A DNA stretch of 59,866 nt from sequence record DRR723986_817, one strand, 5' to 3'. The notes beneath the pieces were generated by a model, which worked only from the letters and a program-made list of their open reading frames with translations, ran no database searches and was not told where the DNA came from. This document shows positions 4,873 through 21,116 of this stretch, one piece after another. Positions within the stretch are counted from its first letter, which is position 1; each line of letters starts with the position of its first letter. The position numbers and the translations under genes were made by a program.

Positions 4873-5086
4873 AGCTTTTTCTCGGCCAGTAATGTCTTTT
4901 TGCAAACCCAATCGTGAATATTGTTGACCAAACAATCGCGTGATGCTTAGGATCAAAATCTCGGGGTCAACAAGGCTGTGGGCACGCGTTGCCCACGATG
5001 GAGACTCATTCAAGTAGCCGCCGAAAATGGTAAGCTGAAGCGATCGTTGTCGCCAGCAGCCCAAGTCAATTTTGAGAATAGTGTCA

Positions 5087-5593: not shown

Positions 5594-5664
5594 GCCGGAA
5601 GAATTGTCTCGGACAAATTGGCTGTTGAAGGCCTTAAAAAGACTGTTCGCCAAAGCAACTCGCA

Positions 5665-6192: not shown

Positions 6193-7007
6193 GACTGCTC
6201 AGCCGATCCAGATTCAAACGGAAAACTTTGATCGATTGGCGTCGCCGAGAGTTCAGCTAGGAAGGTGCCGATTCGCTGTACGATAGCAGCGGTTAGCAAA
6301 CGCCCCTTTTCTGGCGTAGCTTGATGGGGATTTCCGGAGCCGGTATTGGTCGTCAGCAGGTGCCACGGACGCGACAGTCCAACCCACCCCTCGCGAAGCG
6401 CCTCGAAGCGAAGTGGCTTCGTTGCACCAGAATCGGCGACAAGTCCACCGGAGTCGTCGCGCCGCACCAGTTCAGGGCGAAAAGTCATGATCAGACTGGT
6501 TTCCATTTCGCCAGCGTGATCTTCGGGATGCTCACAAACTTCTGCGGCGACATCTTGAATCATTTGGTACCAGTTGCACAAGAACACTTGCACCGGAGTC
6601 TTACCGTAAACTTCCCGTAGGAATGGTTTGAAATCGTTGCCGCCATGGCTATTGAATATGACCAGTTTACGAATCCCGGCTTGGCTGACTGTTTCCAGCA
6701 GGTCCTCCATAACGCGGAACAATGTTGTGGGCCTGAGATTCATCGCTAGCGGGAACTCTTTCAGATTTGACTCAGTACCGTATGGCAGCACTGGCAATTG
6801 GACGACTCGGCCACCTGCCTGCCACGCATGTTCACAACAAGCGTTTGCCAGTTCGTAGCCTTCGATCGAATCGGTTCCGTACGGCAAATGCAGATTGTGT
6901 GGCTCGGTAGCCCCCATCGGCAGCACCGCCACTTGAAAGTCCGCTTCCCGTACGTCCCCCAGAGTTATGTTCTCAAGCAACCATGGCCGTTCAGGCAAAT
7001 TAGTCAA
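6189..7007 (-). CDS. Creatininase family amidohydrolase
   Basis: LPMGATEPHNLHLPYGTD, NSHGGN and DHAGEMETS. TTG start with GAGG upstream. Confidence 0.9.
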   Translation of the reverse strand: MTNLPERPWLLENITLGDVREADFQVAVLPMGATEPHNLHLPYGTDSIEGYELANACCEHAWQAGGRVVQLPVLPYGTESNLKEFPLAMNLRPTTLFRVMEDLLETVSQAGIRKLVIFNSHGGNDFKPFLREVYGKTPVQVFLCNWYQMIQDVAAEVCEHPEDHAGEMETSLIMTFRPELVRRDDSGGLVADSGATKPLRFEALREGWVGLSRPWHLLTTNTGSGNPHQATPEKGRLLTAAIVQRIGTFLAELSATPIDQSFPFESGSAEQS

Positions 7008-7320
7008 AACGAAGTGCCTCTATTCAAGATTTTCATTCAACACGCCTGCATATTGTACTGCTGGCGGGAGACGCATTCTTGCATGATGTTGCTGCCAGAA
7101 CAGATGCCTGTTCAGATTGCGATGTACCTTCACTGCGGAAGCCACAGGGCTTTTGCCTTCAGGACCGAATTCCCAATGGTCATCAACGGGTACCCGCTCT
7201 GGGTCGAATGATGCCTGAGGGCGTATCCTTGAGCGAAGAGTTTCCTTCGGCGACAATTCACCAAGCTCCGTCCCGCGTGCCCGCGTCCGTCCCAAAGACT
7301 CGAAAGATGAGCCTAACCGC

Positions 7321-9135
7321 ATGACTGCCCAAGCTAACGCTCCAAGTTACGAGTTTTTTTCGCAATTCGCACGGATCGTGAATTCAGGTCAAGCCCGCTC
7401 GATCATCATCTCGGGCAATGTGAACGACCTTTTCTTTGATGGAGAGGGTTACGTTCCGCTGGTGCCGTTTTTGCTGAACAAGACAAAGGTCGGCGGTCTC
7501 GTCCAGGTCGTGTATGAGCTAAACGGACCGGTGCGAATCGACGGCAATGACCGAGCCAAGCTTCGCGAAGCCTGGGCGGCATGGAAAACGGGAGTCGACG
7601 TCAACTCATTGGCCATCAAGGATATGACGGCTGAGAGTAGCAAGATTGATATGCGGCGTCGAGAATTCGACCAGTACATGCGTGATGCGATCGGCAATGC
7701 GACACAAGCTCTCGAGTTCCTGCGGCAGTTGACGATATGTTCGCGGGAGACGCTCCGCGAAAACTTGCTGATTTTCGTTGAAGCCGCTGATATGTTGCTG
7801 CCTGCTGGCGACGGCAACATCGCTCGCATGAACGATGCGCAGCTTCGTCGAGTCGCAATTGTGACCGACTGGTTCAGCGATCCCGAGTTTTTTGCCGGCA
7901 AGGACAGCGTTTGCTTGGTGGCGGAATCCAGAAGCCAGATCCACTCGCGAATTGCCAGACTGCCTCAGGTGTTGAGTGTTTCTGCGCCAGCTCCCGACAC
8001 GGACACTCGGCATCACTTTCTTCAGTGGCATGGCAACCATACCGAGGTTTCTTCTGAGATCCCAATCGCTAGCGAACAAGACGCCGAGGAAAATGCCGAG
8101 CCGGATCAGACGCGAGTGCTGGCCGAAGCAACTGCTGGACTGAGCATTCATGCACTTAGGCAGTTGCTCCTGGCCGCTGCGTACAATAACAAACCGGTTT
8201 GCCGAAATGACGTTGTCGAGCAAGTCGAACAGTTTATCCAAACTCAACTCGGCGAGGACGTGGTCGAGTTTAAGAAACCTGAACATTCACTCGAGGATGT
8301 CATCGGCGCAACTCGTCTCAAAGAGTTTCTGAGCAAATACATGCTTCCGAGACTTAGGTTGCCCGACGATCGCGCTTTGCCGGGTGCCGCCGTCGCCGGA
8401 CCGATTGGTGGCGGAAAGACATTTATCTTTGAAGCAGTTGCAGCCGAACTGGACATGCCAGTTCTGGTCCTCAAGAGCATCCGCAGCCAGTGGTTTGGGC
8501 AGACCGACGTCATCTTCGAACGCCTGAAACGAGTCCTAACCGCCCTCGAGAAAGTGGTCATCTTTGTTGACGAGGCAGACACTCAATTCGGCGGAGTTGG
8601 CGAGGGAGCTCACGAAACAGAACGCCGCCTTACAGGAAAAATCCAAGGAATGATGAGCGATCCGACGCTACGCGGCAAAGTCATCTGGCTATTGATGACG
8701 GCGCGTATTCATCTGCTATCTCCCGACATTCGACGACCAGGGCGTGTCGGTGACTTGATCATTCCCGTGCTCGATCCAACTGACGACGATCGACGTGACT
8801 TTATCCAGTGGATGGTTAAGCCAGCGGGTTTAGCCGGTGAGAACCTAGTTCAGTGGTTGGACACGGAAGGCCTGCCCGAAGAGTTTTCCGCGGCCGGTTT
8901 TGCAGCTCTGCGGAGTGAGCTTAAGGCGCTTCCCCCCCAGTCGGAATTTGAGCTCAAGGCAACCGTCGATGATTTCATTCAACCGGCAATTGGCCTCACT
9001 CGTCGGTATCAAACTCTGCAAGCGTTGGTAAACTGCACCCGCAAGAGCCTCTTGCCGGATCCAGAAGTAACCGATGAGCAGCGCGCCCAGTGGGACGCAG
9101 AAATCCGCCTATTAGAAGGGCAGGGCATACGTTAG
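7321..9135 (+). CDS. Classical-clade AAA ATPase with degenerate N-terminal AAA-like domain
   Basis: Walker A GPIGGGKT, pore loop SQWFGQT, Walker B VIFVDEAD and Arg-finger region PDIRRPGR. The N-terminal half has IIISGNVND and LIFVEAAD remnants. Confidence 0.88.
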   Translation: MTAQANAPSYEFFSQFARIVNSGQARSIIISGNVNDLFFDGEGYVPLVPFLLNKTKVGGLVQVVYELNGPVRIDGNDRAKLREAWAAWKTGVDVNSLAIKDMTAESSKIDMRRREFDQYMRDAIGNATQALEFLRQLTICSRETLRENLLIFVEAADMLLPAGDGNIARMNDAQLRRVAIVTDWFSDPEFFAGKDSVCLVAESRSQIHSRIARLPQVLSVSAPAPDTDTRHHFLQWHGNHTEVSSEIPIASEQDAEENAEPDQTRVLAEATAGLSIHALRQLLLAAAYNNKPVCRNDVVEQVEQFIQTQLGEDVVEFKKPEHSLEDVIGATRLKEFLSKYMLPRLRLPDDRALPGAAVAGPIGGGKTFIFEAVAAELDMPVLVLKSIRSQWFGQTDVIFERLKRVLTALEKVVIFVDEADTQFGGVGEGAHETERRLTGKIQGMMSDPTLRGKVIWLLMTARIHLLSPDIRRPGRVGDLIIPVLDPTDDDRRDFIQWMVKPAGLAGENLVQWLDTEGLPEEFSAAGFAALRSELKALPPQSEFELKATVDDFIQPAIGLTRRYQTLQALVNCTRKSLLPDPEVTDEQRAQWDAEIRLLEGQGIR

Positions 9136-9164
9136 CGAGTGCTTCAGATTACCAGGATGTGAAT

Positions 9165-9365
9165 ATGCTGACTAAAAAATTTGATTGCCGCTTGCACCAA
9201 TTCGCGATTGCGTGCGCCTGCATCGGTGCGTCAATCGGTCTGTGCGCCGCGTCGTACAATTGGATCGTGAACACAAGATTTGCTGGCGACACGATTTTTG
9301 CGTCGCTGTTTGCCCTCACGGCAGCAATCCCGGTATGGCAAGACTACGACCGCAAGTATAGATAG
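9165..9365 (+). CDS. Small putative two-helix membrane protein (66 aa)
   Basis: Fills the gap between co-oriented genes; two hydrophobic segments; AGGA upstream of ATG 9165. Confidence 0.4.
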   Translation: MLTKKFDCRLHQFAIACACIGASIGLCAASYNWIVNTRFAGDTIFASLFALTAAIPVWQDYDRKYR

Positions 9366-9442
9366 CTGAATCCAAGAGCTCTAGGCTGCACCGCACCTAG
9401 GTTCGCACTACAGAACCACCAAACGAAAGGGCTTCCGCCGCG

Positions 9443-11272
9443 ATGAGAATGAGACATGCCGCAATCCCGCTTTGCTTCACTCTGCTTTTTGCTGCCCTGG
9501 CCACGCATGCCACAGCCCAACAATCATTCCGCCAGTTAACGGGCAACGTATCCGTCGGGAATGTTGCCAAGAGTTCGTCGGTGAAGATTCCGTACATCAC
9601 CTGGGGCGGCGACGTAGCCACTTTCTTGGCCAACGGCGATTTGAAAACGAAACCAGGATCGATCTATGCCAGCAAGAAACTGAACATCGAACTGACTCCT
9701 GGAGATGACTTCGTTGGTCAAGTAAAGGACTACGTCAGCGGCAAGAGCCCGTTCCTTCGCGGAACGTTCCGAATGCTTGGCCAAGCGAGCGAAGTCCTGG
9801 GTGCTGACCCAAGAACAAAGCCTGTCGTCATTTTGCAATTATCGTGGTCGGCTGGAGATCACATCGTTGCACGCAAAGAAATCAAATCGCTGAACGATCT
9901 GAAAGGCAAGAAAATCGCTTGCCAACAGGGCGGTCCTCATGTGGGGCTGCTTTACGATTCCTTGGATGCCGCGCAGCTAAGCAAGGACGACGTAGAAATC
10001 GTCTGGACGAAAGACCTGACAGGTCCCGGTGGGGCAGCGGAGCTGTTTCGCAAAGACTCCACCATCCACGCCTGCTGCGTTATTACTCCTGATCTAATTG
10101 GACTGACGGGCGGATTTGACACGACGGGCAGTGGGGCGGAAGGCACCGTCGCGGGCGCTCACGTTATCAACAGCACCCAGCAAATGAGCCGCTCAATCGC
10201 AGACGTTTATGCCGTTCGGAAAGACTGGTATGACGCCAATCGCGATTGGGTTGAGAAGTTCGTTGCTGGGTATCTGGCCGCCAGCAAGAAGACCGTCGAC
10301 TTGCGAAACGACTTTGAGAAATCGCAGCGTCTTGGCGGAGAGTACAAGAATCTCCTGGCCACCAGTCAACGGATCTTTGGAGCCGAGGTGCTCCCGACGC
10401 TTGAGGTTGATGCGCATGGTCTGTTGCTGGACTGTACCTTCGCCGGGCTCGCTGGCCAGCAATCGTTCTTTACCGACAAAGGCAATTTGAGTGGATTTGC
10501 ACCGAAGCTGAAAGAATCCCTTAACATGGCGACGAGCTGGGGCTACGCGTCGAGCCGACGTGGTTTTGAACCCAACAATTTTCGCTACCAGAAAATCGCC
10601 GATCTCGCAGGACTGGAGTTTAAACAGCTCAACACGTCGCAAGAGAGATTCGGAGAGATTGACAGTTTCGAAGACTTTGGCAACCTAGATCAAAACACAA
10701 TTGTTAGCTTCACGATCAGCTTCCAACCCAATCAGTTTGAGTTTTCGACCGATGTCTATGGAGGTGAATTCGAGCGTGCGTTGAAGCAAGCCAGCACCTT
10801 CGGGAACGCTCGAGTCATCATTCGCGGACATGCCGACCCCACAAAGACTCTCCAAGATCTCGTGGTCACCGGTGTAAAGAAAGGTCTGCTCAAGCAAACA
10901 GGCCAACGCGGCAATCGACGCTACTTCTTCAAAGGTAAGCCACTCGACATTGAGAACATGGGCGAAGTCGTCCAGCTCATCCAGTCTGGTGCATTTTCGG
11001 GCGGTGATCGCGACCCAGCCGTTCGCATGCAAGCAGCATTGAGCCTTTCGAAACGACGAGCTGAAAATGTGAAGAAGGCGCTCACCGAATACGCTCGGCA
11101 GATCAACGCCAACGTCGACCTCAGCCAAATCACACCTCTTGGGGCTGGCATCTCAGAACCCGTCATCACCAAACCGACCTCGATTGAAGAAGCCATGGAG
11201 AACATGCGGGTCGAGTTCCGCATTGTTAAGGTCGATGCGGAGACGATCCAACCCGACGATTTTGATTTCTAG
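9443..11272 (+). CDS. Exported NMT1/SsuA-like solute-binding protein fused to a C-terminal OmpA-like domain
   Basis: Signal peptide (ATA-QQ); SBP motifs SWSAGDHIVAR..IKSLNDLKGKKIA and IADVYAVR; OmpA-like ISFQPNQ, IRGHADP, LSKRRAENVKKAL and NMRVEFRI. Confidence 0.82.
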   Translation: MRMRHAAIPLCFTLLFAALATHATAQQSFRQLTGNVSVGNVAKSSSVKIPYITWGGDVATFLANGDLKTKPGSIYASKKLNIELTPGDDFVGQVKDYVSGKSPFLRGTFRMLGQASEVLGADPRTKPVVILQLSWSAGDHIVARKEIKSLNDLKGKKIACQQGGPHVGLLYDSLDAAQLSKDDVEIVWTKDLTGPGGAAELFRKDSTIHACCVITPDLIGLTGGFDTTGSGAEGTVAGAHVINSTQQMSRSIADVYAVRKDWYDANRDWVEKFVAGYLAASKKTVDLRNDFEKSQRLGGEYKNLLATSQRIFGAEVLPTLEVDAHGLLLDCTFAGLAGQQSFFTDKGNLSGFAPKLKESLNMATSWGYASSRRGFEPNNFRYQKIADLAGLEFKQLNTSQERFGEIDSFEDFGNLDQNTIVSFTISFQPNQFEFSTDVYGGEFERALKQASTFGNARVIIRGHADPTKTLQDLVVTGVKKGLLKQTGQRGNRRYFFKGKPLDIENMGEVVQLIQSGAFSGGDRDPAVRMQAALSLSKRRAENVKKALTEYARQINANVDLSQITPLGAGISEPVITKPTSIEEAMENMRVEFRIVKVDAETIQPDDFDF

Positions 11273-11344
11273 ATTTATTCTGTGGAGGCGGTTAGTCGGG
11301 CTCGGTGCATTGAGACGTTTTAGATCCAAGAGGTAACGAACCAT

Positions 11345-12223
11345 ATGTTCAGAATTACTGTTTCGCTATTGCTCTTGCTTGCGTTTTCCGGCCAAGCCGC
11401 AGTCGCAGACCAGAACGTGGTCATCGTTTTCGACGATTCCGGCTCAATGGACGACCGCATGTCGAGCGGAGAAAGGCGTATTGATGCAGCCAAAGGCGCC
11501 CTTGTTAAAGTGCTCGAGCGGTTGCCGCCAGAAACCAATGTTGGAGTCCTTGCCCTGAATTCAACTGTAGCTGGTTCACCGTGGATCATTCCCCTTGGCC
11601 CCATCGCAACGGTTGACTGGAAGACCAACGTCGCCCGCCTGGACGCACTTGGCGGCACCCCCTTAGGCGCGTACTTAAAGACCGGTGCGGACGCCTTGCT
11701 CAGTGCTCGCGATCAACAGGTTTATGGCGAATTTCGCCTGCTAGTCATCTCTGACGGCGAAGCCAACGATCCGCGGCTGGTAGACCGCTACCTTCCGCAG
11801 ATACTCGCTCGCGGCTTGCGGATTGAGGCCATCGGTGTCGACATGCAAAGTGACCATTCGCTGGCTACGAAGGTGCACGCCTACCGCCGAGCCGACGATG
11901 ACACATCGCTCGAGCGGGCCATATCAGAAGTCTTCGCGGAGACTTCATCCGACGACCAAGACGCGGCGGACAATTTCGAGATGCTAGAGGGCTTACCGGA
12001 TGGATTTGCCGAACAAGCCATCGCAGCGCTAACCGACGTTAGCAACGAGCCGCTTGATGGATCTGCAGCAGCCGGCAGCCGATACGGCACGAACTCAGCC
12101 TTTGTATCAGGTAGCTCGCCAAGCTGGTTCGGCGTCCTTTTCGGTGGCGGTTGCGTGTGCTTTGGAGGATTCCTCGGGCTCGTTATCCTAATCGTTATCA
12201 TCTCCAAAGCCGCGAAGAAATAG
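11345..12223 (+). CDS. Exported von Willebrand factor A domain protein with C-terminal membrane anchor
   Basis: Signal peptide; MIDAS DDSGSM, GGTPL and ISDG; hydrophobic C-terminal helix followed by KAAKK. Confidence 0.87.
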   Translation: MFRITVSLLLLLAFSGQAAVADQNVVIVFDDSGSMDDRMSSGERRIDAAKGALVKVLERLPPETNVGVLALNSTVAGSPWIIPLGPIATVDWKTNVARLDALGGTPLGAYLKTGADALLSARDQQVYGEFRLLVISDGEANDPRLVDRYLPQILARGLRIEAIGVDMQSDHSLATKVHAYRRADDDTSLERAISEVFAETSSDDQDAADNFEMLEGLPDGFAEQAIAALTDVSNEPLDGSAAAGSRYGTNSAFVSGSSPSWFGVLFGGGCVCFGGFLGLVILIVIISKAAKK

Positions 12224-12242
12224 TTTCACACCGGACGCACCG

Positions 12243-13766
12243 ATGAGTAAAGCGAAGATTTTCCTAGCCTGCTTGATCTGGCTAGTCCTTCTGTCCGCAG
12301 GCGTTGCCATCTACCGCCTCATTCTGGTACCGCGAGCAGCGGCAAAGAAGGAAGCGGAGGAGACTCAGGTCATCGAAGCGACGAGCGGCAATTCAAATTA
12401 CCGCCACACGCTTCGCTTGGGCCTGGACGGCTTCACCGGCTACGCAGTCCTACGATCTGTTTCATTAAAGAAGCAACTCCGTTCCCGCGGAATCAAGTTA
12501 GAACTCGTCGACGACGGGGCCGACTACGGGCAGCGGATGAGTTCTCTAGCGGCCGGGGATGTACATCTGGCCGCATTTCCAATTGATGCGCTTCTGAAGG
12601 CGAGCGATGCGACCGGCAAGTTGCCTGCAACAATCGTCGCGATTATCGACGAAACGGTTGGAGCCGATGCGTTGGTCGCGTACCAAGATCGTTTCCCTGA
12701 TATCAATTCACTTAACGACCCTGCCACGAAAATCGTCTACGTGGGCGACTCTCCCAGCGAGACGTTGGTTCAGGTGTTGATGCAAAAGTTTGATCTAACG
12801 GCACTGAGCAACGACTCGCTCGTTCCGGTCGCCAGTGAAGCAGAGTTGCTCCGGCGTTACAAAGCGGCTCGTCCTGCTGGCAATGAGGTCTTTGCCACTT
12901 GGGAGCCGGTCGTCAGCCAGATGAAACAAAATGATGCACTGCATGTGCTCACTGATACGAGCCAAGAGACGGGCTTCATCATTGATTCTCTTGTCGTAGG
13001 GCGAGATTTCCTTTTCAAGAATGAACCGCTGGTCCAAGAGTTCTTGGAATGCTATTTCCGCGCTCTGCACGAAATCAACAAATCGGGTGGCATTGAATCG
13101 CTGGTCAGATCCGACGCAGGAGCGGCTGGTACGAAACTAAGCAAGGAACAAATCCAAGCCCTTTCTGACGGCATCGCTTGGAAGAACACACAAGAGAATT
13201 TCGCCCATTTCGGCTTGCGCCGCGCTTCGGTTGTGTTGGTGGAAGACATGATTGACCGCGTGACCAGCATCCTCCTGCAGTCCGGGGGACTCAAGAAAGA
13301 TCCGACCAATGGACAGCCATCACGCCTGTTCTACGAGAAAACGTTGGCGGCTTTGCAATCGTCAGACTTCCACCCTGGAGTCAATTCGGAGTCGGTGCGT
13401 GAACAAGCAGCTCTTCCCAAGCTGGGAGAGTCGGACTGGCAGCGGCTCGTGCCGGTCGGAAACGCTCAAGTCCCCGCCCTAATTTACGCTCGTGGAACAT
13501 CGCGTTTGACCCAATCGAGCATGGCAAAGCTGGATGACCTCGTTGCCAACCTGGATAGCTGGCCGCGGTACTATCTAATGATCCGAGGCAACGCGAGTTC
13601 GAGAGGTGATGAATCGGCCAATCGCAAGCTGGCTCGTAGTCGTGCCGAAGCTGCTCTACAATATCTGTTATCCAAGGGCGTGCCCGCCAACAAAATGAAG
13701 GCGATGGACGGCGAACTGTCTGGCCAAACCTCCGTTACATTCGTGCTCGGTCAGATGCCGTTCTAG
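12243..13766 (+). CDS. Membrane-anchored NMT1/SsuA-like solute-binding protein fused to an OmpA-like domain
   Basis: N-terminal TM helix; DETVGADALV, ATWEPVVS and IIDSLVV; OmpA-like IRGNASSRG..ANRKLARSRAEAALQYLLSKGV. Confidence 0.8.
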   Translation: MSKAKIFLACLIWLVLLSAGVAIYRLILVPRAAAKKEAEETQVIEATSGNSNYRHTLRLGLDGFTGYAVLRSVSLKKQLRSRGIKLELVDDGADYGQRMSSLAAGDVHLAAFPIDALLKASDATGKLPATIVAIIDETVGADALVAYQDRFPDINSLNDPATKIVYVGDSPSETLVQVLMQKFDLTALSNDSLVPVASEAELLRRYKAARPAGNEVFATWEPVVSQMKQNDALHVLTDTSQETGFIIDSLVVGRDFLFKNEPLVQEFLECYFRALHEINKSGGIESLVRSDAGAAGTKLSKEQIQALSDGIAWKNTQENFAHFGLRRASVVLVEDMIDRVTSILLQSGGLKKDPTNGQPSRLFYEKTLAALQSSDFHPGVNSESVREQAALPKLGESDWQRLVPVGNAQVPALIYARGTSRLTQSSMAKLDDLVANLDSWPRYYLMIRGNASSRGDESANRKLARSRAEAALQYLLSKGVPANKMKAMDGELSGQTSVTFVLGQMPF

Positions 13767-13850
13767 GTGTGCCCATTTGGATGCAGCGACTGCTGCCGCG
13801 GTAGCAATCGTATTCCGAGTCCGCCCTGAACCAATAGAACATCGCCGAAC

Positions 13851-14579
13851 GTGGACGCCGTAAAACGCAAAGTAATCTCTGAGTTGTTCCTAGCACCAAG
13901 TGTCGTTCTTCCGATTGTCGGCGGCATCAGTGCTGGACTGCTTTCATGGGCCAGCGGAGGTAGCACGTATCTGTCAGGGGCGGCGATCGCCGGAGTTTTG
14001 GGTGGCATTGGCTGGATGCTCACCAGAATGGTCTTCAAAGTCGAAGACATTACAGAAGCTGCCATGGGAGCCCAGCTTGACAAGAAACTCCGGCAGGAGA
14101 ACCAAGAGCTAGACGCGTTAGCTGCCAAGCTACGAACGGATCGGGACCATCGAACACAGGATTATTTGACTCTGCTAAGATCTCTTCGAGCCGACTTTGA
14201 AACGGAAGCGGCCGAGCAGGGTGGCCACTTTCGCAGCGCCCAGATTCGCGAAAAGGTGGGCCAAATATTCCATGCGGCTGTCGATCAACTCGAAGAGTCG
14301 TATAAATTATGGGAACGAGCTCAGAAGCTTAGCGGCGACACCAAACAACGGGTGCTCGACCAACGCGAGCAAGTGCTCAAGGAAATCGAAGAAACCGTCG
14401 TTCGAATCGGCGAATCTGTCGACCACTTTCGCCAGACGGTACGGGCGGAAAAGAATATTGACCTGGCAGCTCTGCGAGAAGAGCTTGATGCGACTATGCG
14501 AGTTGCCAGGCGGACTGAGGAACGAATGCGACAACTGGAGCAGCCCTCGTCCGATCACGAATCATTCATCAACGAATAG
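13851..14579 (+). CDS. Membrane protein with two TM helices and a long coiled-coil tail
   Basis: Hydrophobic N-terminal hairpin followed by about 170 aa of charged helical sequence; GTG start. Confidence 0.75.
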   Translation: MDAVKRKVISELFLAPSVVLPIVGGISAGLLSWASGGSTYLSGAAIAGVLGGIGWMLTRMVFKVEDITEAAMGAQLDKKLRQENQELDALAAKLRTDRDHRTQDYLTLLRSLRADFETEAAEQGGHFRSAQIREKVGQIFHAAVDQLEESYKLWERAQKLSGDTKQRVLDQREQVLKEIEETVVRIGESVDHFRQTVRAEKNIDLAALREELDATMRVARRTEERMRQLEQPSSDHESFINE

Positions 14580-14597
14580 AACAGAGGCATTGCATCC

Positions 14598-15410
14598 ATG
14601 TTTAAAGCCGTTGGAAAGTACTTTCGCGCGGTCTGGTACCTGATGACCTTTCGCGTGAACAAGGCAAGTGAAACTCTGCGGATGAACCCCGGTGTTGTAT
14701 CGGCGAACTACGATCGCGTCATTGAAGAGAAACGCTCGCGCCTGAATCAATACAAAGACGCGGTCAGCGCCATGATCGCTCAAGAGGAAAGCAAAAAAGA
14801 GCGTCTGCGCAGCCTAACCGACGAAATTGAAAAGCTTGAAAAGCTCCGCTCCGGTGCCGCCGCAAAGGCGAAGAAACTGGTCGAGAAATACAATGGCGAC
14901 GTCTCGGCCGTAAAGAGCGACCCGGATTACATCAAATGCCAAGCTGCGTTTAAGGATTTCTCTAGCACACTGTCAGAAAAACAACAGCGTGCTTCCGAGA
15001 TCGACGAAGACCTGAAGCAACTAGTTGCAAACGTTGGCGGACACAAGACTCAGATCCAATCTTTGATGCGAGACCTTGAAAAGCTCAAAGAAGAGAAGCA
15101 CGACGCCGTTGCAGACATCCTATCTGCCACGGAGGAGAAGCAGATCGCGGATATGATGACCGGCCTGTCCAACGATCGCACCAGCGAAGAGCTCCGCGAA
15201 CTTCGTGAGATGCGTCAAAAGGCGAGTGCTAACGCTCGCATCAGCCGCGAACTGGCCGGCATGGACACCCAACGCGCAGAAGCGGAATTCCTTGAGTACG
15301 CTCAAACGAGCGAAGCGGATGATGAGTTCGACGCGCTCATTGGACTTTCACAGAAAGAATCCGGCACGAACGAGCCACCTCAGCAAGACACGCAAATCCC
15401 AGAAGCTTAA
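14598..15410 (+). CDS. PspA/IM30 (ESCRT-III superfamily)-like coiled-coil protein
   Basis: N-terminal amphipathic helix MFKAVGKYFRAVWYL, then NP followed by a long helical hairpin; C-terminal ADDEFDALIG resembles PspA helix 5; GAGG RBS. Confidence 0.75.
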   Translation: MFKAVGKYFRAVWYLMTFRVNKASETLRMNPGVVSANYDRVIEEKRSRLNQYKDAVSAMIAQEESKKERLRSLTDEIEKLEKLRSGAAAKAKKLVEKYNGDVSAVKSDPDYIKCQAAFKDFSSTLSEKQQRASEIDEDLKQLVANVGGHKTQIQSLMRDLEKLKEEKHDAVADILSATEEKQIADMMTGLSNDRTSEELRELREMRQKASANARISRELAGMDTQRAEAEFLEYAQTSEADDEFDALIGLSQKESGTNEPPQQDTQIPEA

Positions 15411-15577
15411 CGGCCAGCGGAGCGTTCGAGCTGCGATACTTAATCAGCTCTGCGCAAGAAACGTCATGTGCCCGATCGGCACTCGTTCATCGAGACCATT
15501 TCATCTGAAGCGTCGTAATACGCGACCTGTCAGCAAAAGAATACACAATTGCAATTATGCAAAAGGGACGCAGACTC

Positions 15578-16669
15578 GTGATAAAACACTTTCCAACATT
15601 GATCTGCTTGAGTTCGCTGCTTTTACTTTCAGGTTGTGGCAAATCTGAAAAACAAGGGGACACCGGAGTTGCTTCAGGCGATCTCCCCAGCTTCAACCTC
15701 GCATGGAGCGAGTACCCAAGCTGGTCAGTGTTCGGCGTCGCTCATGAATTGGGATTGATCGACAAAGCTGCAGGGAAGGTTGGCACCATTGAAGAAAAGC
15801 ATGGTGTGGACATTGTCTTGACGGAAGCTGGCTACGACAGTTGCCTGAATATGTATACGTCAGGCAATTGCGATGCGGTATGCATGACCAACATGGATGC
15901 ACTTGTAGTATGCCCCAGTAGAAGCGGAGTCGCGTTTCTGCCGACCAGCACTAGTGTCGGTGCAGACGCATGTATCGTTGTTGGAATTGACAACATCGAT
16001 CAACTCAAGGACCACAAGATCTACGGTCTACAAGGAACCGTGTCGCAGTATTGCTTCGCCCGCTGCATCGAAGAACTCGCCAAAGAATCTGGCGGATCGC
16101 AGAAGCCATCTGACTACGATTTCACAAACCAAGATCCTGCTGCCGCAGCAGCCGCCATGACCAGCAAACAGGATAGCCACAAGGCGATCATGGTCTGGAA
16201 CCCATTCGTGCTGCAGACGCAGAATGATCGCCCCGATGCAAAAGTGCTTTTCGATTCGAGCATGATTCCCGGCGAAATTGTCGACATGGTCGTCCTGGGT
16301 GCAGATGTAAAGGACAAAGAAGGCGCCGACAAATTCATGGCAGCCGTCGCGGACGTCTTTTACGCAATGAATACTGAGCTAGCCACACCAGGCGAAAGGG
16401 GAGATCAAGTTCTCGTTGATCTTGGCCAGAAGTTCTCCAATCTCGGTCTTGAGGACATGAAAACGGTCGTTAAGCAAACTCAATTCTACAAATCAGCCGA
16501 CGAAGCTAAGACGTTGCTCGAAAGCGATGACTTCAAGAACACGATGAAGACAGTCGAAGCGTTTTGCGTGGAGCAGGAGTTGGTGAAAGATCCAAGCTAT
16601 TCGTTCGACGGCGACGCTAGTGCATACTTGCAATTCGACGCGTCGATCGTCTCGGGGCTCACAGAATAG
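15578..16669 (+). CDS. ABC transporter substrate-binding lipoprotein (NMT1/SsuA-like)
   Basis: Lipobox LLSGC; AWSEYPSWSVF, TSTSVGADA, VWNPF and IPGEIVDMVV. GTG 15578 follows AAGGGA; alternative ATG at 15557. Confidence 0.82.
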   Translation: MIKHFPTLICLSSLLLLSGCGKSEKQGDTGVASGDLPSFNLAWSEYPSWSVFGVAHELGLIDKAAGKVGTIEEKHGVDIVLTEAGYDSCLNMYTSGNCDAVCMTNMDALVVCPSRSGVAFLPTSTSVGADACIVVGIDNIDQLKDHKIYGLQGTVSQYCFARCIEELAKESGGSQKPSDYDFTNQDPAAAAAAMTSKQDSHKAIMVWNPFVLQTQNDRPDAKVLFDSSMIPGEIVDMVVLGADVKDKEGADKFMAAVADVFYAMNTELATPGERGDQVLVDLGQKFSNLGLEDMKTVVKQTQFYKSADEAKTLLESDDFKNTMKTVEAFCVEQELVKDPSYSFDGDASAYLQFDASIVSGLTE

Positions 16670-16725
16670 CCTGTTCGAATTGGGGGACCTTTACCTCTTC
16701 TCTGATTGAGCCAATAAACTCCTAA

Positions 16726-17733
16726 TTGCGAGAGACAAGTGTGATACGGCAGCCGATTTCGACCAAATTTCGTATCGGCCTAGCCGTTTCCTCGGTGCTC
16801 ATCATGGTGCTGCTGTACACGTTGCTTTCTGAAAGCAAGCAACGCGCTGCTCGACGCGAGGCAGTCGAAATAGCCAACGAACAACTGGTGACGATCGTCG
16901 AACAACTCGCCGAGTCCAACGAATCCCTCCGCGCAACAGATGATCCATCTCCGCAGCGCACCCGAACTCTCCAACGCATTGAAAAGTTAGAAGCCGACAA
17001 GGTCAAGTTCACCCAGATGCGTGAATCGCCCAATCGGGCCGACCGGACAATGCCTAGCTGGTCGATGCTGTATAAAGACGGACTCATCCGCTCCATTACG
17101 CCACAGGGTTCATTTGAGCGTAAAGAAGTCTGGCTCTACGAAGACTTCTATGCCACTGGCAAGCGACTTATTGTGGCAATGGTTTTGGGCGGATTTCTAT
17201 CGGTCTTCATTGGGCTCATGATGGGGTGTTTCGATCCTGTCGAAGCGTTCTTGATGCCGCCGTTCGCATTTTTGTCGAAAGTGCCAGCAACCGCGGTTCT
17301 GCCAGTCTTTTTCGTCATCGTGCAGATTAATTTTTCGATGTACGTCGCCATCGTGATATTTGGAATGCTGCCTAGCTTGGCACAGGCAATATCGGCTAGC
17401 GTCCGGAAGGATGTCCCCGAAGAATTGATTTTCAAAGCATACACGCTTGGGGCCAGTCAGGTTGAATTGATTTGGAACGTCATCGTTCGGCAGATCTTGC
17501 CAAGGATGATTGACGCGATTCGACTGCAGATCGGGCCTGCCCTAGTGCTGCTCGTCGCGGCAGAATGGATGGTCTCCGGCGAAGGGATTGGTTATCGCTT
17601 GCGACTATTTTATCAGCGAACCGACATGACAGTCGTTTTTGTGTACGTGGTCTTGCTCGGCATCATCGGCTTACTTGCCGACTATTTCCTGATCTGGCTT
17701 CGTCGCCGCTTATGCCCATGGTTTGGTGATTGA
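16726..17733 (+). CDS. ABC transporter permease (NitT/TauT type)
   Basis: EAA-like loop VPEELIFKAYTLGAS, LVAAEW..SGEGIGY and multiple TM helices. Start is TTG 16726 or GTG 16741. Confidence 0.9.
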   Translation: MRETSVIRQPISTKFRIGLAVSSVLIMVLLYTLLSESKQRAARREAVEIANEQLVTIVEQLAESNESLRATDDPSPQRTRTLQRIEKLEADKVKFTQMRESPNRADRTMPSWSMLYKDGLIRSITPQGSFERKEVWLYEDFYATGKRLIVAMVLGGFLSVFIGLMMGCFDPVEAFLMPPFAFLSKVPATAVLPVFFVIVQINFSMYVAIVIFGMLPSLAQAISASVRKDVPEELIFKAYTLGASQVELIWNVIVRQILPRMIDAIRLQIGPALVLLVAAEWMVSGEGIGYRLRLFYQRTDMTVVFVYVVLLGIIGLLADYFLIWLRRRLCPWFGD

Positions 17734-17806
17734 GTCGTAGCTGACGAGCACCTGTTCACTCAGCGAATCACAGCCGTACCGCAAACTTCCAAACAGTCCT
17801 ATAGCC

Positions 17807-18769
17807 ATGACTAGACCCGACGCAACGAGCCCGCAACTCGACTACGAAACCGACGACATCGTTCTCGAGTGCAAGAATGTTAGCCAGTGGTTCGGAAGCA
17901 ACAAGGTTCTAGGAGACGTCAATCTTCGCATCGGACGAGGGCAAATTTGTGCACTGGTTGGTCCGAGCGGCAGCGGTAAATCCACGCTTCTACGCGCCAT
18001 CCTTGGAACGCATCCAGCGAAGGGCGGCGAAGTATTGATGGACGGAGTTGCGTACCGGAAGCCACACCGCGATCGCGGAATCGTCTACCAGCGATATTCG
18101 CTGTTTCCCTTCCTGACGGCCGAGGAAAATGTGGCGTTTGGTTTGACGCTCGATGAGACCTCAATTCCGTTCCGCCTGTTTCAGTTTCCACAATTCCGCA
18201 AGAAAAAGGCTGAGTACGTCCGCCGAGCGGGCGAGCTCCTAGACCGCGTTGGACTTGGACACGCCAAGAAGAAGTATCCGACCGAATTGTCTGGCGGCAT
18301 GTGTCAGCGGGTGGCCATTGCCCAAGCATTGATCATGCGTCCTAAGCTACTGCTGCTCGATGAACCATTTGGTGCGCTTGATGAAGCAACACGCGAAAGC
18401 CTGCAGTTGATGCTACTCCAGCTCTACGAAGAAAACCTGAAAGCACGAGCGGCGGGCAAGCCGGAGCCGCATACCATCCTTATCGTGACTCACGAACTTA
18501 ACGAGGCACTCTACGTCTCAGATCGTATCCTTGGCCTTTCCCAGTACCATACCGAAGGGGATCAAGGAGCCACGATCGTATACGACAAGCCAGCGCCTAT
18601 CTTCCGCCCCAATGACGAAAAAGATCTCAGCAGGTTTCAGCAACAGAAAGAAGTCTTGCTGGAGAGTGTCTTTAGCGAAGACTGTATGCAGCACCATTCC
18701 GAATTCGTTTCCTTTTGGAACGAAGTCGCAGAAGCTCGCAGCAGTGTGATTGAATCGAAAACAGAATAA
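17807..18769 (+). CDS. ABC transporter ATP-binding protein (NitT/TauT type)
   Basis: Walker A GPSGSGKS, signature LSGGM, Walker B LLLLDEPFGALD and H-loop VTHE. Confidence 0.93.
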   Translation: MTRPDATSPQLDYETDDIVLECKNVSQWFGSNKVLGDVNLRIGRGQICALVGPSGSGKSTLLRAILGTHPAKGGEVLMDGVAYRKPHRDRGIVYQRYSLFPFLTAEENVAFGLTLDETSIPFRLFQFPQFRKKKAEYVRRAGELLDRVGLGHAKKKYPTELSGGMCQRVAIAQALIMRPKLLLLDEPFGALDEATRESLQLMLLQLYEENLKARAAGKPEPHTILIVTHELNEALYVSDRILGLSQYHTEGDQGATIVYDKPAPIFRPNDEKDLSRFQQQKEVLLESVFSEDCMQHHSEFVSFWNEVAEARSSVIESKTE

Positions 18770-18866
18770 TGCTGGCCCGCGTTCGCTTACCTTCATCAGA
18801 TGAGTAAACGCGAGTGTCAACGTCACGCAGATTGCTTATCGCCAGGCTCAGCTCTGACTACTCAAA

Positions 18867-21116
18867 CTACAGTCGCTTTGCCACTTGGCCAATCAAGTAG
18901 AACATTTCAGCGGCAATTTGATCACGCCGTGCATCATAGGTTGATGCCTCTTGCGGTGATCCATCAGAAACTTTCGGATCCTTGTAGTGCAGGGCAACTC
19001 GCCCGATTGCGCCGCGTACCAAAGGACATTTTTCGTCAGCATCACTGCAACACATCATGGCGAAGAAGCCCTCGCTAGGATTGATCGGATCGTCATACTT
19101 CTTGGAAAACAACTCAATCGGAGCTGTGTTTTCTTCGAACTGAGCCAAGTACAGCGGATTCTTGGCGGTCGGCTTGTCGGTCGTGACGCTAAAGCCACCC
19201 CGACGCAACGATCTGACGATACGAGGATTGCATGCTGTTGCTTCCGTTCCTCCACTAACGCTAGTGATTTTGTTCTGCAAACCAAATTCTTGAGCCGCAA
19301 CGCTCGTCCATAGCTGTGCCAAGTGACTTCGGCGCGAGTTGTGCGTGCAGATAAAGTTTAACGCAATGCTACCGCGATCCTTCAGCGCGGCGGCGATTTT
19401 GGCGGCTGCTTTGCCGAGCAACTCACTTCGCTGGGGAGGCAACTCTGAAGCCGCAACTTTGTAGCGTCCAATGTTGTCGACAAGTCCTGGCAACCAAGCT
19501 GAAGATCGATCCAAATCAGATTTCATTACGCCTCCATCCTTCGCTTCGTTGTTCTTGTTGACTATTGCACTTGTAAATCGCACCTGCATTGGAGCACTTG
19601 AAGCTGCACTCTTTTTCTCTTGATCCCAAAGACGATGTGGGTCGTCTAGCCTCTGCATCTCAGAAAGCAACAACGCTTCCATTTCGGCTTGTTTGCTTGC
19701 ATATTCAGGGTGGCCAGCAAGATTCGTTTGGTTCGGCTTGGGTTTAGAACCGGCTAGAAATTGAACGCTTTCAAGCTGGTGAGCATCAAGGTACTCGTTT
19801 GGATTCTCTTTCAAATTAAACAGTTGCGTTTTGCGAACAGTTCCATCGAGACAATCATACTTGATAAGCTTCCAATCACCCTTTCGTACACATCGCATTC
19901 CGGGCTTGGTACCTCCGCAGTACACACCGAACAGCACATCACGAACCGTTTGCGTCGCTTGCGTCAATACAGGCTTAAAACTCTTGCCTTCATTGGTCTC
20001 TGGTGGGTTGATGCCAGCCAGGTCGCACAGTGTAGCAAGCGAATCGAGCAAGTAGACATTCCCCTCGGCTCGCGTGCCCGGCTTGATTCCAGGGCCTTTA
20101 ACGATCATCGGCACTCGCCATGTATGATCGTAGAGATTCTGCTTACCTTGCAATCCATGCCGCCCAATCGCCATCCCGTGGTCGGATGTGTACACGATGT
20201 AGGTGTTGTCGAGCTCACCGGTTGCTTCTAGCTTCTCAAGCACTCGGCCGATTTGGATGTCGATGTTTTCGCTACAGGCAAATTGACGACCAATCTCGTT
20301 TCGAATCGTCGCTTCATCACGGCGATGCCACACACCGCTAACAGCTACTTCATCACGTAACCCAGGTTGACCATGGTGAAATGGATGTGCGGGCAAGTAG
20401 TTTGTAGGTAGCGGTGGTTGCTTTGCATTGAGGGCGGGCGGTTTCGACTTGTCGGTGTGGTTCGTCGCACCATACTTGGCAAGCAACTCGGGAGTTCCAT
20501 CTCGGGTGTCGTGCGGATGGGAGAATCCAAAGTAGATCAAGAACGGCTTCTTGCTACCCGCCGCCTGACGCTCACCGAGATAATCGAGTACCTGTTCTGC
20601 ATGCCAAGCGGATCCCGTTTCCGCGGTGCCACCACGCTTCGATGCGTCACGTCTGACCTCGAATTGCTGATTCGCCAGCTCGTAGCTGTTGCCGCGCTTG
20701 CAGGTTCGCATGGTGTCGTAGCCAGCGCGATTAAACACGGCCGCCAAGGTCTGCTTTTCCAGGCCTTCGGGAACTAGCTTTGAATTCTGCGTGTTGGGGT
20801 TCTCTTTACGGCCGCGTTTATTTGGAATGTGCCAGACCGTCCTACCGCTCATCACCATGTGACGGGAAGCGGTACAGACCGCGCCGACCCACGATCCCAT
20901 CTGATAGGCATTCTCAACCACCATTCCTTCCCTGGCTAGCTTCTCGATGTTGGGCGCATCGAGCTGGCTGTTTGGGTCATAGGGCTTTAGATCGAAGGGC
21001 GACTGGTCATCAACGATGATGAATAGAATATTCGGTTGTTCGGCTGCTTTGGCAGTGGGCATTAAGGCAGCTAGTAATAAGACGACCGCCGTTAACAGTA
21101 GAGATAAGTTTCGCAT
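18867..21116 (-). CDS. Exported formylglycine-dependent sulfatase fused to an ArsC/LMW-PTP-family domain
   Basis: Signal peptide; PNILFIIVDD, CTASR, SDHG and GKQNLYD; C-terminal FICTHNSRRS, CSDADEKCP and YKDPK. Confidence 0.88.
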   Translation of the reverse strand: MRNLSLLLTAVVLLLAALMPTAKAAEQPNILFIIVDDQSPFDLKPYDPNSQLDAPNIEKLAREGMVVENAYQMGSWVGAVCTASRHMVMSGRTVWHIPNKRGRKENPNTQNSKLVPEGLEKQTLAAVFNRAGYDTMRTCKRGNSYELANQQFEVRRDASKRGGTAETGSAWHAEQVLDYLGERQAAGSKKPFLIYFGFSHPHDTRDGTPELLAKYGATNHTDKSKPPALNAKQPPLPTNYLPAHPFHHGQPGLRDEVAVSGVWHRRDEATIRNEIGRQFACSENIDIQIGRVLEKLEATGELDNTYIVYTSDHGMAIGRHGLQGKQNLYDHTWRVPMIVKGPGIKPGTRAEGNVYLLDSLATLCDLAGINPPETNEGKSFKPVLTQATQTVRDVLFGVYCGGTKPGMRCVRKGDWKLIKYDCLDGTVRKTQLFNLKENPNEYLDAHQLESVQFLAGSKPKPNQTNLAGHPEYASKQAEMEALLLSEMQRLDDPHRLWDQEKKSAASSAPMQVRFTSAIVNKNNEAKDGGVMKSDLDRSSAWLPGLVDNIGRYKVAASELPPQRSELLGKAAAKIAAALKDRGSIALNFICTHNSRRSHLAQLWTSVAAQEFGLQNKITSVSGGTEATACNPRIVRSLRRGGFSVTTDKPTAKNPLYLAQFEENTAPIELFSKKYDDPINPSEGFFAMMCCSDADEKCPLVRGAIGRVALHYKDPKVSDGSPQEASTYDARRDQIAAEMFYLIGQVAKRL

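Follow-up and report, generated by a model that had tools for sequence, protein, structure and literature searches.

The planctomycete cluster at positions 7321-18769 of the window (the whole stretch of DNA analysed, 59,866 nucleotides of record DRR723986_817) carries genes for a divergent member of the PspA/Vipp1 family and for a classical AAA ATPase, and across genomes these two proteins are tightly linked, both by co-occurrence and by adjacency. The pair occurs in two forms, either alone or inside a nine-gene set with the AAA gene at one end or the other. We consider it somewhat better than an even bet that a bacterial ESCRT-III-like PspA polymer is here acted on by an AAA remodeller of its own, and that the two can in addition be coupled to a periplasmic module for solute binding and transport.

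The open reading frame listing gives nine intact, co-oriented genes on the plus strand within exactly the limits that the first-pass annotation had set, and Pfam and NCBIfam returned the AAA, SBP, OmpA, vWA, permease and ABC ATPase domains that it had named. The minus-strand flanks were also confirmed, being genes for a creatininase, a nitroreductase, a sulfatase and an EamA protein. Intergenic gaps measure 18-146 bp, with the exception of 307 bp behind the AAA gene. A small plus-strand reading frame had been listed here in addition to the nine genes (9090-9365 from a GTG, or about 66 aa from the ATG at 9166). It carries two hydrophobic stretches, has no family match in Pfam or NCBIfam and gave a tblastn match in the closest relative (L001) only, at 46% identity where the neighbouring genes reach 80-95%; in the other relatives the gap from the AAA gene to the next gene is too short for it. 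We regard it as probably not a gene.

The PspA-like protein (14598-15410, 270 aa) is, at the profile level, a divergent relative in the PspA/Vipp1 branch of the ESCRT-III superfamily, as first proposed. A profile of 65 family members matches the Vipp1/PspA structure 6zvr with an E value of 7.9e-8 in two collinear stretches, and 15 of the 65 match PF04012 at 0.01 or better, the window's own protein scoring 12.4 bits against a cutoff of 33.9. The AF2 model is all-helical (pLDDT 79.9), and in a Foldseek search its top seven matches were all Vipp1/PspA (best E 2.4e-3); rigid structural alignment did not separate it from other long helical hairpins, those of Smc, PI3K iSH2 and chemoreceptors (Z about 12). 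NCBI names the orthologue in Aureliella helgolandensis PspA/IM30. At its N-terminus the protein has an amphipathic helix and at its C-terminus a conserved [KRQ][LI]PE tail. This tail comes after a variable linker in all 15 AAA-linked PspA homologues, and the consensus of the 65 aligned sequences shows it too.

The AAA ATPase (7321-9135, 604 aa) belongs by its sequence to the classical AAA clade and has one intact cassette, the C-terminal one (PF00004 at residues 358-477, E 9.4e-15). In this cassette Walker A reads GPIGGGKT and Walker B IFVDEAD, the pore loop has the sequence WFG, and the arginine-finger region is RRPGR. Both Walker motifs, the aromatic pore loop and the arginine fingers show no variation across 25 orthologues, from which we judge the enzyme to be catalytically competent. 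The N-terminal region of about 300 aa looks like a degenerate second AAA cassette, as it aligns with the C-terminal cassette over 133 collinear columns (hhalign probability 64%, E 6.6e-5). Homologues of this N-domain number 2041, and among the 120 listed PF00004 is present in 118, the other two being short (377 and 404 aa). The assignment to the classical clade was borne out; a particular likeness to Vps4 was not. The closest solved relatives are VAT (E 2e-19) and p97 (about 1e-16), with bit scores of 72.6 and 62 against 43.8 for Vps4 (1e-10), and no MIT domain was detected.

The linkage of the two proteins was examined in 401 sampled Planctomycetota genomes. The PspA family is found in 17 and the ATPase N-domain in 19, the latter being present in all 17 PspA-positive genomes (Fisher p 5e-28, uncorrected for relatedness and inflated by common ancestry). 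In 16 of the 17, a single contig carries both genes, no more than about 7 kb apart. Fifteen of these loci were fetched and their gene order read. Eight contain the bare pair, PspA followed by AAA with gaps of about 40-370 bp. Six have the AAA gene last, in the order SBP-OmpA (SBP, solute-binding protein), vWA, TM-SBP-OmpA, 2TM protein, PspA, SBP, permease, ABC ATPase, AAA; the 2TM protein gave no tblastn match in two of the six (L096, L097), and one (L092) is cut at its 5' end. The remaining locus (L098) has the AAA gene first, as in the window. Among 80 Pirellulaceae loci, 19 match the window in gene order from the AAA gene to the lipoprotein gene and six have AAA, (2TM) and PspA alone, while 18 have TM-SBP-OmpA, 2TM and PspA with no AAA gene within about 10 kb upstream, 14 of these with a lipoprotein match too. 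In two Pirellula genomes of this last type the AAA gene stands at another locus, still adjoining SBP-OmpA and vWA, and both halves of the split cluster therefore keep accessory genes. The claim of conservation as a unit holds up, since the nine-gene set recurs in relatives within the Planctomycetota and, with the same gene order, in a distantly related metagenomic lineage (34% identity in PspA, GC 0.47).

The genes around the pair encode envelope and transport proteins, and the domain calls first made for the SBP-OmpA fusions, the vWA protein, the lipoprotein, the permease and the ABC ATPase stand. The SBP-OmpA fusion at 9443-11272 (609 aa) joins an NMT1/SsuA-type domain (NMT1 2.1e-5, SsuA_fam 1.7e-10) to a C-terminal OmpA-like domain (7e-4, under the curated cutoff); hydropathy indicates a signal-peptide-like N-terminus, and orthologues of 50-90% identity occupy the same position in relatives. 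In the TM-SBP-OmpA fusion (12243-13766, 507 aa) an N-terminal transmembrane segment (residues 6-24) precedes solute-binding (NMT1 6.7e-4, TIGR03427 1.3e-9) and OmpA-like (4.6e-11) domains. Between them lies the gene of the exported vWA protein (11345-12223, 292 aa; VWA_2 6.5e-8, VWA 4.5e-7 in Pfam), which has a MIDAS motif (DxSxS, read as DDSGSM) and hydrophobic stretches at residues 4-22, signal-peptide-like, and 268-286, a C-terminal transmembrane segment. The vWA protein is therefore periplasmic and, as the AAA ATPase has no transmembrane segment by hydropathy, the argument from vWA-AAA partnership fails.

The 242-aa membrane protein encoded directly upstream of PspA (13851-14579) had been described as a 2TM coiled-coil protein. 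Hydropathy supports one strong transmembrane segment at least and a weaker, Gly/Ala-rich second one, and alignment and the AF2 model (pLDDT 68.9) point to an N-terminal transmembrane hairpin and a helical bundle in the cytoplasm; the motif DRDxRTxDxLxLLR is conserved. A fold family could not be assigned by sequence or structure searches: there was no sequence match to solved structures and no Foldseek match, a VIA-wide search gave just generic 3-helix, BAR-like and Snf7-like matches (Z 7.6-10), and the hhalign probability against the PspA family was 0.4%.

The last three genes of the window's cluster specify an ABC importer. Its solute-binding lipoprotein (15557-16669, 370 aa) matches TIGR03427 (1.1e-46, below the 333.9-bit cutoff) and has a signal-peptide-like N-terminus by hydropathy with the lipobox-like sequence LLLLSGC. 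The permease (16726-17733, 335 aa) is of the TauC/SsuC/NtrB type (BPD_transp_1 6.2e-16; TauC 3.5e-18 across residues 134-335) and, judged from its hydropathy pattern, has an extra helical insert of about 110 aa behind TM1. The ABC ATPase (17807-18769, 320 aa; ABC_tran 5.3e-33) has intact ABC motifs, and its best NCBIfam matches are sulfate, phosphonate, nitrate and taurine ATPases, all under cutoff. The NitT/TauT-type scores are all below the equivalog cutoffs, and the family matches therefore name no substrate.

In the mechanism that we infer, including its physical contacts, the ATPase substrate, the ligand and the physiological trigger, the core would be a two-gene unit of a PspA/Vipp1-type membrane-binding polymer and a dedicated soluble AAA ATPase with a putative degenerate first and an active second cassette. 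A hexamer of the ATPase would engage PspA subunits, possibly docking at the conserved LPE tail, and ATP would drive their extraction or unfolding, so that the PspA coat lining the inner membrane on its cytoplasmic side is disassembled, recycled or remodelled. Vps4 does the equivalent job on ESCRT-III in archaea and eukaryotes. In the window the pair sits within a seven-gene envelope module, which comprises a peptidoglycan-tethered periplasmic SBP, an inner-membrane-anchored SBP-OmpA protein, a periplasmic membrane-anchored vWA protein, a transmembrane-hairpin protein whose helical bundle lies in the cytoplasm, and a NitT/TauT-type importer of lipoprotein, permease and ATPase. This module may bind and import a small solute and fix the inner membrane to the wall; the hairpin protein could relay the state of the apparatus to PspA, and membrane maintenance would thereby be coupled to solute or osmotic status. 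Recruitment of PspA by the 2TM protein and its recycling by the ATPase, as the first-pass annotation had it, likewise stand as conjecture. The module appears dispensable for the pair, because TM-SBP-OmpA was undetected with the window's query in four of five short-form genomes. Against a remodelled polymer count the 12.4-bit PF04012 score and the non-discriminating rigid alignment, the ATPase's missing MIT domain and greater nearness to VAT/p97, the non-adjacency of PspA and AAA in the 18 Pirellula-type loci and in L012/G004, and the 307-bp gap.

Alternatively, PspA could be a regulator or adaptor instead of the substrate, holding the AAA protein inactive until stress releases it or targets it to the membrane, where it would act on other clients, extracting or unfolding damaged membrane proteins, for example, or parts of the transporter or SBP-OmpA proteins. 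The co-occurrence and adjacency data fit this equally well, the Pirellula ATPase stays with SBP-OmpA and vWA and not with PspA, and there is a precedent in E. coli, where PspA binds and inhibits the AAA+ protein PspF (PMC7619361). We nevertheless hold it to be unlikely: SBP-OmpA and vWA are periplasmic and beyond the reach of a soluble cytoplasmic ATPase, the bare pair in eight of the 15 fetched loci encodes no other evident client nearby, and Pfam finds neither a DNA-binding nor a sigma-54 interaction domain in the ATPase.

It is improbable that the cluster is two independent neighbours, an ordinary nutrient ABC importer, taking up a urea-, sulfonate-, nitrate- or amine-like solute and equipped with accessory binding proteins, beside a PspA-AAA stress pair, brought together by local genome history. 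The eight loci without the module, the frequent failure to detect TM-SBP-OmpA there and the likeness of the transporter parts to ordinary NitT/TauT importers would suit such an arrangement, and no regulator or riboswitch linking the transporter genes with the pair was found. However, the set of nine genes remains together over deep planctomycete lineages, at identities of 30-60%, and also in the distant metagenomic lineage, PspA lies mid-module with AAA at either end, the AAA-last form places AAA only about 0-30 bp behind the ABC ATPase gene, and the Pirellula split does not run between transport and PspA-AAA genes. That the cluster is chiefly a structural tether like Pal or MotB, OmpA-domain and vWA proteins stapling the inner membrane to peptidoglycan, PspA stabilising the cytoplasmic face there and the binding domains now serving as protein- or glycan-binding modules without transport function, is very doubtful. 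In its favour are an OmpA-like domain on each of two proteins (one of them anchored in the inner membrane), an exported vWA protein with a complete MIDAS motif and binding-protein matches that all fall below equivalog cutoffs. Against it, the set is conserved together with a complete importer, the ATPase of which has intact ABC motifs, and one distant variant has an aldehyde dehydrogenase gene separating the permease gene from that of the binding protein, a hint that the solute is small and is metabolised.

The polymer-remodeller reading has a direct antecedent. The first-pass annotation put the system forward as a candidate undescribed one; the layout is, however, already known from comparative genomics, as Ravi et al. 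2024 (PMC11237479) describe operons of PspA, double-AAA, ABC ATPase, permease and PBPB-OmpA. According to their text description, on which the likeness rests, these operons share with the window a PspA homologue, an ABC ATPase, a permease, an SBP-OmpA fusion, a TM-bearing helical protein and an AAA protein whose N-terminal cassette is inactive and whose C-terminal one is active; by independent comparative genomics they arrived at the same general reading, ATP-dependent membrane remodelling tied to solute transport. Their main text names no vWA protein ("vwa", 0 occurrences), nor does it speak of two distinct SBP-OmpA proteins, bare-pair versus nine-gene forms, a cyclic move of the AAA gene, a Pirellula split or an LPE tail (PMC11237479). 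They label the TM protein a Snf7 homologue (PMC11237479), an identity which hhalign against the PspA family, Foldseek and the VIA-wide search did not confirm for the 242-aa protein. We found no experimental work on the cluster in the literature.

With archaeal and eukaryotic ESCRT-III/Vps4 (CdvB/CdvC) the window shares an ESCRT-III-superfamily polymer gene beside a classical-clade AAA gene, with aromatic pore loop and arginine fingers, and a conserved short C-terminal motif on the polymer subunit behind a flexible linker. It differs in that the polymer is of the PspA/Vipp1 and not the Snf7/CHMP branch, the ATPase lacks MIT, carries a putative degenerate extra cassette and scores higher with VAT/p97 than with Vps4, and ESCRT-I/II and CdvA were not detected. 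Canonical Psp/Lia systems (E. coli pspF-pspABCDE, B. subtilis liaIH) likewise combine a PspA-family effector with a small membrane protein, the window's being encoded directly upstream in a position comparable to LiaI or PspB/C; in the window's cluster, Pfam and NCBIfam found no PspB, PspC or PspF domain, as first noted, and no LiaI/LiaF or Toastrack domain either, and the linked ATPase belongs with the classical AAA proteins instead of the NtrC-type bEBPs. The NitT/TauT importers (TauABC, SsuABC, NrtABCD, TIGR03427 "uca") agree with the window's importer in the fold class of the binding protein and in the families of permease and ATPase; the window adds the permease insert and two binding-domain paralogues fused to OmpA-like domains.

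The cluster consists of nine intact, co-oriented genes on the + strand between 7321 and 18769, as the ORF listing confirmed, and is flanked by unrelated minus-strand creatininase, nitroreductase, sulfatase and EamA genes. The first gene (7321-9135) encodes an AAA ATPase (PF00004, E 9.4e-15). A vWA protein gene (11345-12223) lies between two fusions of an NMT1/SsuA-type solute-binding protein (SBP) with an OmpA-like domain, the first at 9443-11272 (OmpA E 7e-4, below cutoff) and the second, TM-SBP-OmpA, at 12243-13766 (OmpA E 4.6e-11). These are followed by the genes for two helical proteins without significant family match in Pfam or NCBIfam, the 242-aa 2TM protein (13851-14579) and the 270-aa PspA-like protein (14598-15410), and by those for a binding lipoprotein (15557-16669; TIGR03427, 1e-46, below cutoff), a TauC/SsuC/NtrB-like permease (16726-17733; BPD_transp_1) and an ABC ATPase (17807-18769), the last being recognized, like the vWA protein, with Pfam/NCBIfam. 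The hydropathy profiles favour export for the first fusion, the vWA protein and the lipoprotein, with the vWA protein anchored by its C-terminus, the second fusion anchored by its N-terminus and the 242-aa protein inserted as a TM hairpin whose second span is weak. The first-pass annotation had listed nine substantial genes and one small ORF; the nine stand, and the small ORF downstream of the AAA gene is a doubtful gene. It has no family match, and a counterpart was seen in the nearest relative only, with 46% identity as compared with 80-95% for its neighbours. The absence of PspB, PspC and the bEBP PspF claimed there was upheld, since none of the ten proteins gave a match to them in Pfam or NCBIfam.

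The noncoding signals add little to this picture. No Rfam family matched 6800-19200 at E <= 1, which leaves no riboswitch clue to the ligand. When 6800-19300 was scanned with the sigma-70 consensus, 0 promoter-like sites were found as compared with 6.5 +/- 2.4 in shuffled sequences, consistent with planctomycete promoters departing from the E. coli consensus. Terminator-like sites within the cluster numbered 13 against 15.1 expected, all intragenic. We also observed that the creatininase gene, which precedes the AAA gene, keeps its position in many loci of the Aureliella group, often together with the nitroreductase gene; the genes concerned are those of 4243-7007 (minus strand) in the window and their equivalents in L001, L004, L005, L013, L014, L020, L027 and L030.

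The PspA-like protein taken alone is not recognized as such: PF04012 gave E 0.12 (12.4 bits, cutoff 33.9), and a sequence search against solved structures gave no match. Homologues are numerous (1042 at E <= 1e-3 among 90% clusters, 495 clusters at 50% identity), and a profile built from 65 diverse members matches the Vipp1/PspA structure 6zvr with E 7.9e-8, collinear in two stretches (residues 39-98 and 133-250). PF04012 matches at <=0.01 in 15 of these 65 members (best 3.4e-7), and the orthologue of Aureliella helgolandensis is named "PspA/IM30 family protein" by NCBI. AF2 predicts an all-helical protein (pLDDT 79.9) whose helices span 2-28, 31-97, 109-190 and 198-247. The best seven Foldseek matches of this model are all Vipp1/PspA structures over about 243 columns, with weak E-values (2.4e-3 to 1.8e-2), and a VIA rigid-body second look ranked generic coiled-coil hairpins first (Z about 12) and did not single out Vipp1. 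Since the fold evidence is thus compatible but not discriminating, family membership rests on the sequence profile, at which level the protein is a member of the PspA/IM30 family and hence of the ESCRT-III superfamily. The identity proposed earlier for 14598-15410 was in this way borne out by the 65-member profile, not by a Pfam match of the single protein. The protein is unusually conserved: the best 120 of the 1042 database matches share 80-95% identity with it along their full length, and for the 2TM, vWA and binding proteins encoded beside it the figure in these genomes is 40-65%.

In the AAA ATPase, residues ~340-560 form a classical AAA cassette, whose best relatives among solved structures are VAT (2e-19, 72.6 bits), p97 (~1e-16, 62 bits) and then Vps4 (1e-10, 43.8 bits). 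NCBIfam returned CDC48 (2.7e-13) and CdvC (1e-9), both far below cutoff. Across 25 orthologues with identities as low as 48%, Walker A (GPIGGGKT), Walker B (DEAD), WFG and RRPGR show no or almost no variation. By analogy with classical AAA proteins we take WFG to be the pore loop and RRPGR the SRH/arginine-finger stretch. Judged by these motifs, the region is a classical AAA cassette with a pore loop and a second region of homology. Pfam and NCBIfam contained no match to an MIT domain; the enzyme therefore resembles Vps4 only broadly, as a classical AAA unfoldase.

The N-terminal 300 residues had no match in Pfam or, by profile search, among solved-structure sequences, and in the ESM Atlas this N-domain matched unnamed clusters only. 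Aligned with the protein's own cassette (340-560), however, residues 1-300 gave an hhalign probability of 64% (E 6.6e-5) over 133 collinear columns, pairing IFVEAAD with IFVDEAD, RLPQV with RRPGRV and a lid-like TAGLS..ALRQLL with SAAGFAALRSEL. The N-domain contains no GKT Walker A/P-loop. With moderate support, the N-terminal region fits a degenerate first AAA cassette such as the available text of Ravi et al. 2024 describes. As a side observation, the AAA gene carries an internal TGA in G005 (C1:755812-757645), the genome of locus L039, and one stop in L097 (7238-9055), which may mean that the ATPase is decaying in some lineages, or that the assemblies contain errors. The permease and ABC genes of L039 are displaced downstream by about 7 kb from their usual place.

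A possible contact between the two proteins is suggested by the C-terminus of PspA. In each of the 15 AAA-linked PspA homologues fetched from the phylum, the sequence closes with [KRQ][LI]PE, in some cases plus one residue. This tail lies behind a variable acidic linker which itself follows a conserved EFDxLIG motif, and the consensus of the 65-member alignment likewise ends in LPE. The accessible portions of the published accounts of this cluster type contain no mention of this tail. A conserved motif at the extreme C-terminus preceded by a flexible linker is as expected of a partner docking site, and we infer that the partner would be the ATPase. Complex prediction with the full-length AAA and PspA proteins, run without family alignments, gave a score of 0.01, a value that speaks neither for nor against contact.

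We next turn to the distribution of the genes. Among 401 Planctomycetota genomes the PspA family (65-member alignment, E <= 1e-15) is present in 17 and the ATPase N-domain (E <= 1e-10) in 19. Every genome with the PspA family also has the N-domain, and the N-domain matches in the two further genomes are weak (1.9e-17 and 8.8e-11); Fisher's exact test gives p 5e-28, a statistic which ignores shared ancestry and overstates independence. In 16 of the 17 genomes the pair shares a contig, at most about 7 kb apart, the exception (G054) having weak matches on different contigs. Fifteen loci were fetched. Eight have the bare PspA-then-AAA pair, and six have the order SBP-OmpA, vWA, TM-SBP-OmpA, 2TM, PspA, SBP, permease, ABC and AAA with 30-60% identity to the window (L096 and L097 without a tblastn match to the 2TM protein, L092 cut at its 5' end). 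In the AAA-last loci the AAA gene starts about 0-30 bp past the ABC gene. The remaining locus, L098, has AAA at the front as in the window. A homologue search seeded with P0246 gave 16 proteins.

The locus search with the PspA-like protein returned only Pirellulaceae/Planctomycetota loci. For 80 Pirellulaceae loci, many of them on short contigs, we determined the gene content by tblastn (threshold 1e-5). The order of the window from AAA through the lipoprotein is present in 19 and AAA-(2TM)-PspA only in 6, while 18 have TM-SBP-OmpA, 2TM and PspA (14 with a lipoprotein match) without AAA within about 10 kb upstream and three with full flanks have PspA by itself. Five genomes behind such loci all encode the ATPase (71-79% identity): two Pirellula genomes have it at another site, followed by SBP-OmpA and vWA, and G004 about 70 kb from PspA. 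The creatininase gene adjoins AAA even in G004. Of the short-form genomes, which carry the bare pair, four of five gave no TM-SBP-OmpA match with the window query, and in G273 this gene and the 2TM gene share a different contig. In a distant metagenomic lineage (PspA 34% identical, GC 0.47) the order SBP-OmpA, vWA, TM-SBP-OmpA, 2TM, PspA, SBP and permease is kept, with extra genes interspersed. The synteny elsewhere on which the first-pass annotation depended was found, and taken together the loci show a conserved core pair and an optional, conserved seven-gene accessory set travelling with it. The extra genes of the distant variant (L099 8953-9348 and 12149-13411; L100 between 1917 and 4512) include one for a SET-domain protein (2.3e-14) before PspA and one for an aldehyde dehydrogenase (1.2e-98) between the binding-protein and permease genes; the latter is perhaps a clue to what class of solute the system handles.

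Within the accessory set, the 2TM protein has a strongly conserved DRDxRTxDxLxLLR motif downstream of its hairpin and is modelled by AF2 as a helical bundle (pLDDT 68.9). It had no match in the profile search of solved-structure sequences, none in Foldseek at E <= 1e-3, and an hhalign probability of 0.4% against the PspA family. VIA-wide comparison gave I-BAR/F-BAR proteins and designed bundles at Z <= 10, below the meaningful level for helical bundles, with Shrub/Snf7 at rank 42 (Z 7.6), and we cannot confirm kinship with ESCRT-III/Snf7. The vWA protein (DxSxS motif, signal peptide, C-terminal TM) is predicted to be periplasmic and the AAA protein is not of the MoxR class, so that the argument for an AAA-vWA partnership does not apply. 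The three binding domains belong to one fold class and are only distantly related to one another. In the binding lipoprotein, permease and ABC ATPase the cluster has the composition of a NitT/TauT importer in Pfam and NCBIfam (NMT1/SsuA-class binding protein, TauC/SsuC/NtrB-type permease, ABC ATPase); the matches lie below the equivalog cutoffs and membership is therefore at family level. The permease carries, at residues ~36-147, a charged, helical-looking insert of about 110 aa between its N-terminal TM and the TauC-like core (TauC matches from residue 134 on). Judged by its position, this insert could be a periplasmic loop enlarged to dock a binding protein. In the Pirellula-type locus L051 a 340-aa ORF (12101-13123) without Pfam match or tblastn match to the window permease occupies the permease position, and past it follows a RibD gene and no ABC ATPase; the transporter half may have been lost or replaced in such loci.

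The observation of the cluster was thus confirmed and its interpretation supported in part. As the most likely reading, with moderate confidence, we take the core to be a polymer of PspA served by an AAA remodeller of its own, here joined to a wall-tethered solute-binding/ABC-import module and a TM adaptor. Three main rivals have to be weighed. PspA could instead regulate an ATPase that has other clients, which the co-occurrence would fit as well. The cluster could be chiefly a structural membrane-to-wall tether, as the OmpA-like domains might suggest, although a complete importer is conserved with the set. Two independent systems adjacent by chance would fit the pair occurring without the module and would leave the recurrent gene orders unaccounted for. 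The reading as a PspA polymer with its remodeller could be extended to a bacterial counterpart of the ESCRT-III/Vps4 cycle, in which PspA would be disassembled by its own classical AAA protein and, in planctomycetes, be wired to wall-tethered periplasmic binding proteins that trigger remodelling. Ligand capture in the enlarged planctomycete periplasm would then lead to local remodelling of the inner membrane (invagination, vesiculation or repair). We regard this extension as rather improbable. If true, it would contradict the current statement that bacteria are without a Vps4-like partner of PspA: a 2025 review (PMC7619361) states, in its available part, that a Vps4-like ATPase "appears absent in bacteria", and the accessible text of Makarova et al. 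2024 confines systems with vps4 and ESCRT-III to archaea and eukaryotes.

How bacterial PspA/Vipp1 polymers are dismantled is an open question, and the PspA-AAA pair is a concrete candidate for an ATP-driven PspA remodeller, with co-occurrence perfect within the sample searched and adjacency near-universal. The bare two-gene form offers a minimal system for reconstitution, and the envelope module is a possible link from solute or osmotic status to membrane maintenance. Full-text literature searches found no experimental study of this cluster; known in kind and experimentally untouched, it is of value as a well-delimited case on which ATP-driven dynamics of PspA in bacteria can be tested.

Compared with known systems, the cluster differs from the canonical Psp operon (pspF-pspABC), which encodes PspB, PspC and PspF with PspA, by being without all three. 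MoxR-vWA pairs combine a MoxR-class AAA protein with a cytoplasmic vWA protein, whereas the AAA protein here is of the classical clade. Vps4/CdvC shares the classical cassette, although VAT and p97 outscore Vps4, and has an N-terminal MIT domain binding the MIM motifs of ESCRT-III which the window ATPase does not have. Some archaeal ESCRT loci contain a ProX binding protein according to the accessible part of Makarova et al. 2024, which may be a parallel to the envelope module. The passages available from Ravi et al. 2024 (PMC11237479) describe an operon of PspA with a double AAA protein whose N-terminal AAA domain is inactive, report an ABC ATPase, a permease, PBPB-OmpA and a Snf7 homologue with a TM segment in the same operons, and suggest that solute transport is tied to membrane remodelling driven by ATP. 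This type of cluster was therefore already known computationally, and the earlier label of a candidate undescribed system does not hold. The TM-bearing Snf7 homologue would have as its counterpart here only the 2TM protein with its Z of 7.6 to Shrub/Snf7, while a probable double AAA, ABC ATPase, permease and solute-binding-OmpA fusion are all found with PspA in the window; as the general idea is in print, the gain over that operon is a sharper anatomy and a defined experimental target rather than a new category of system.
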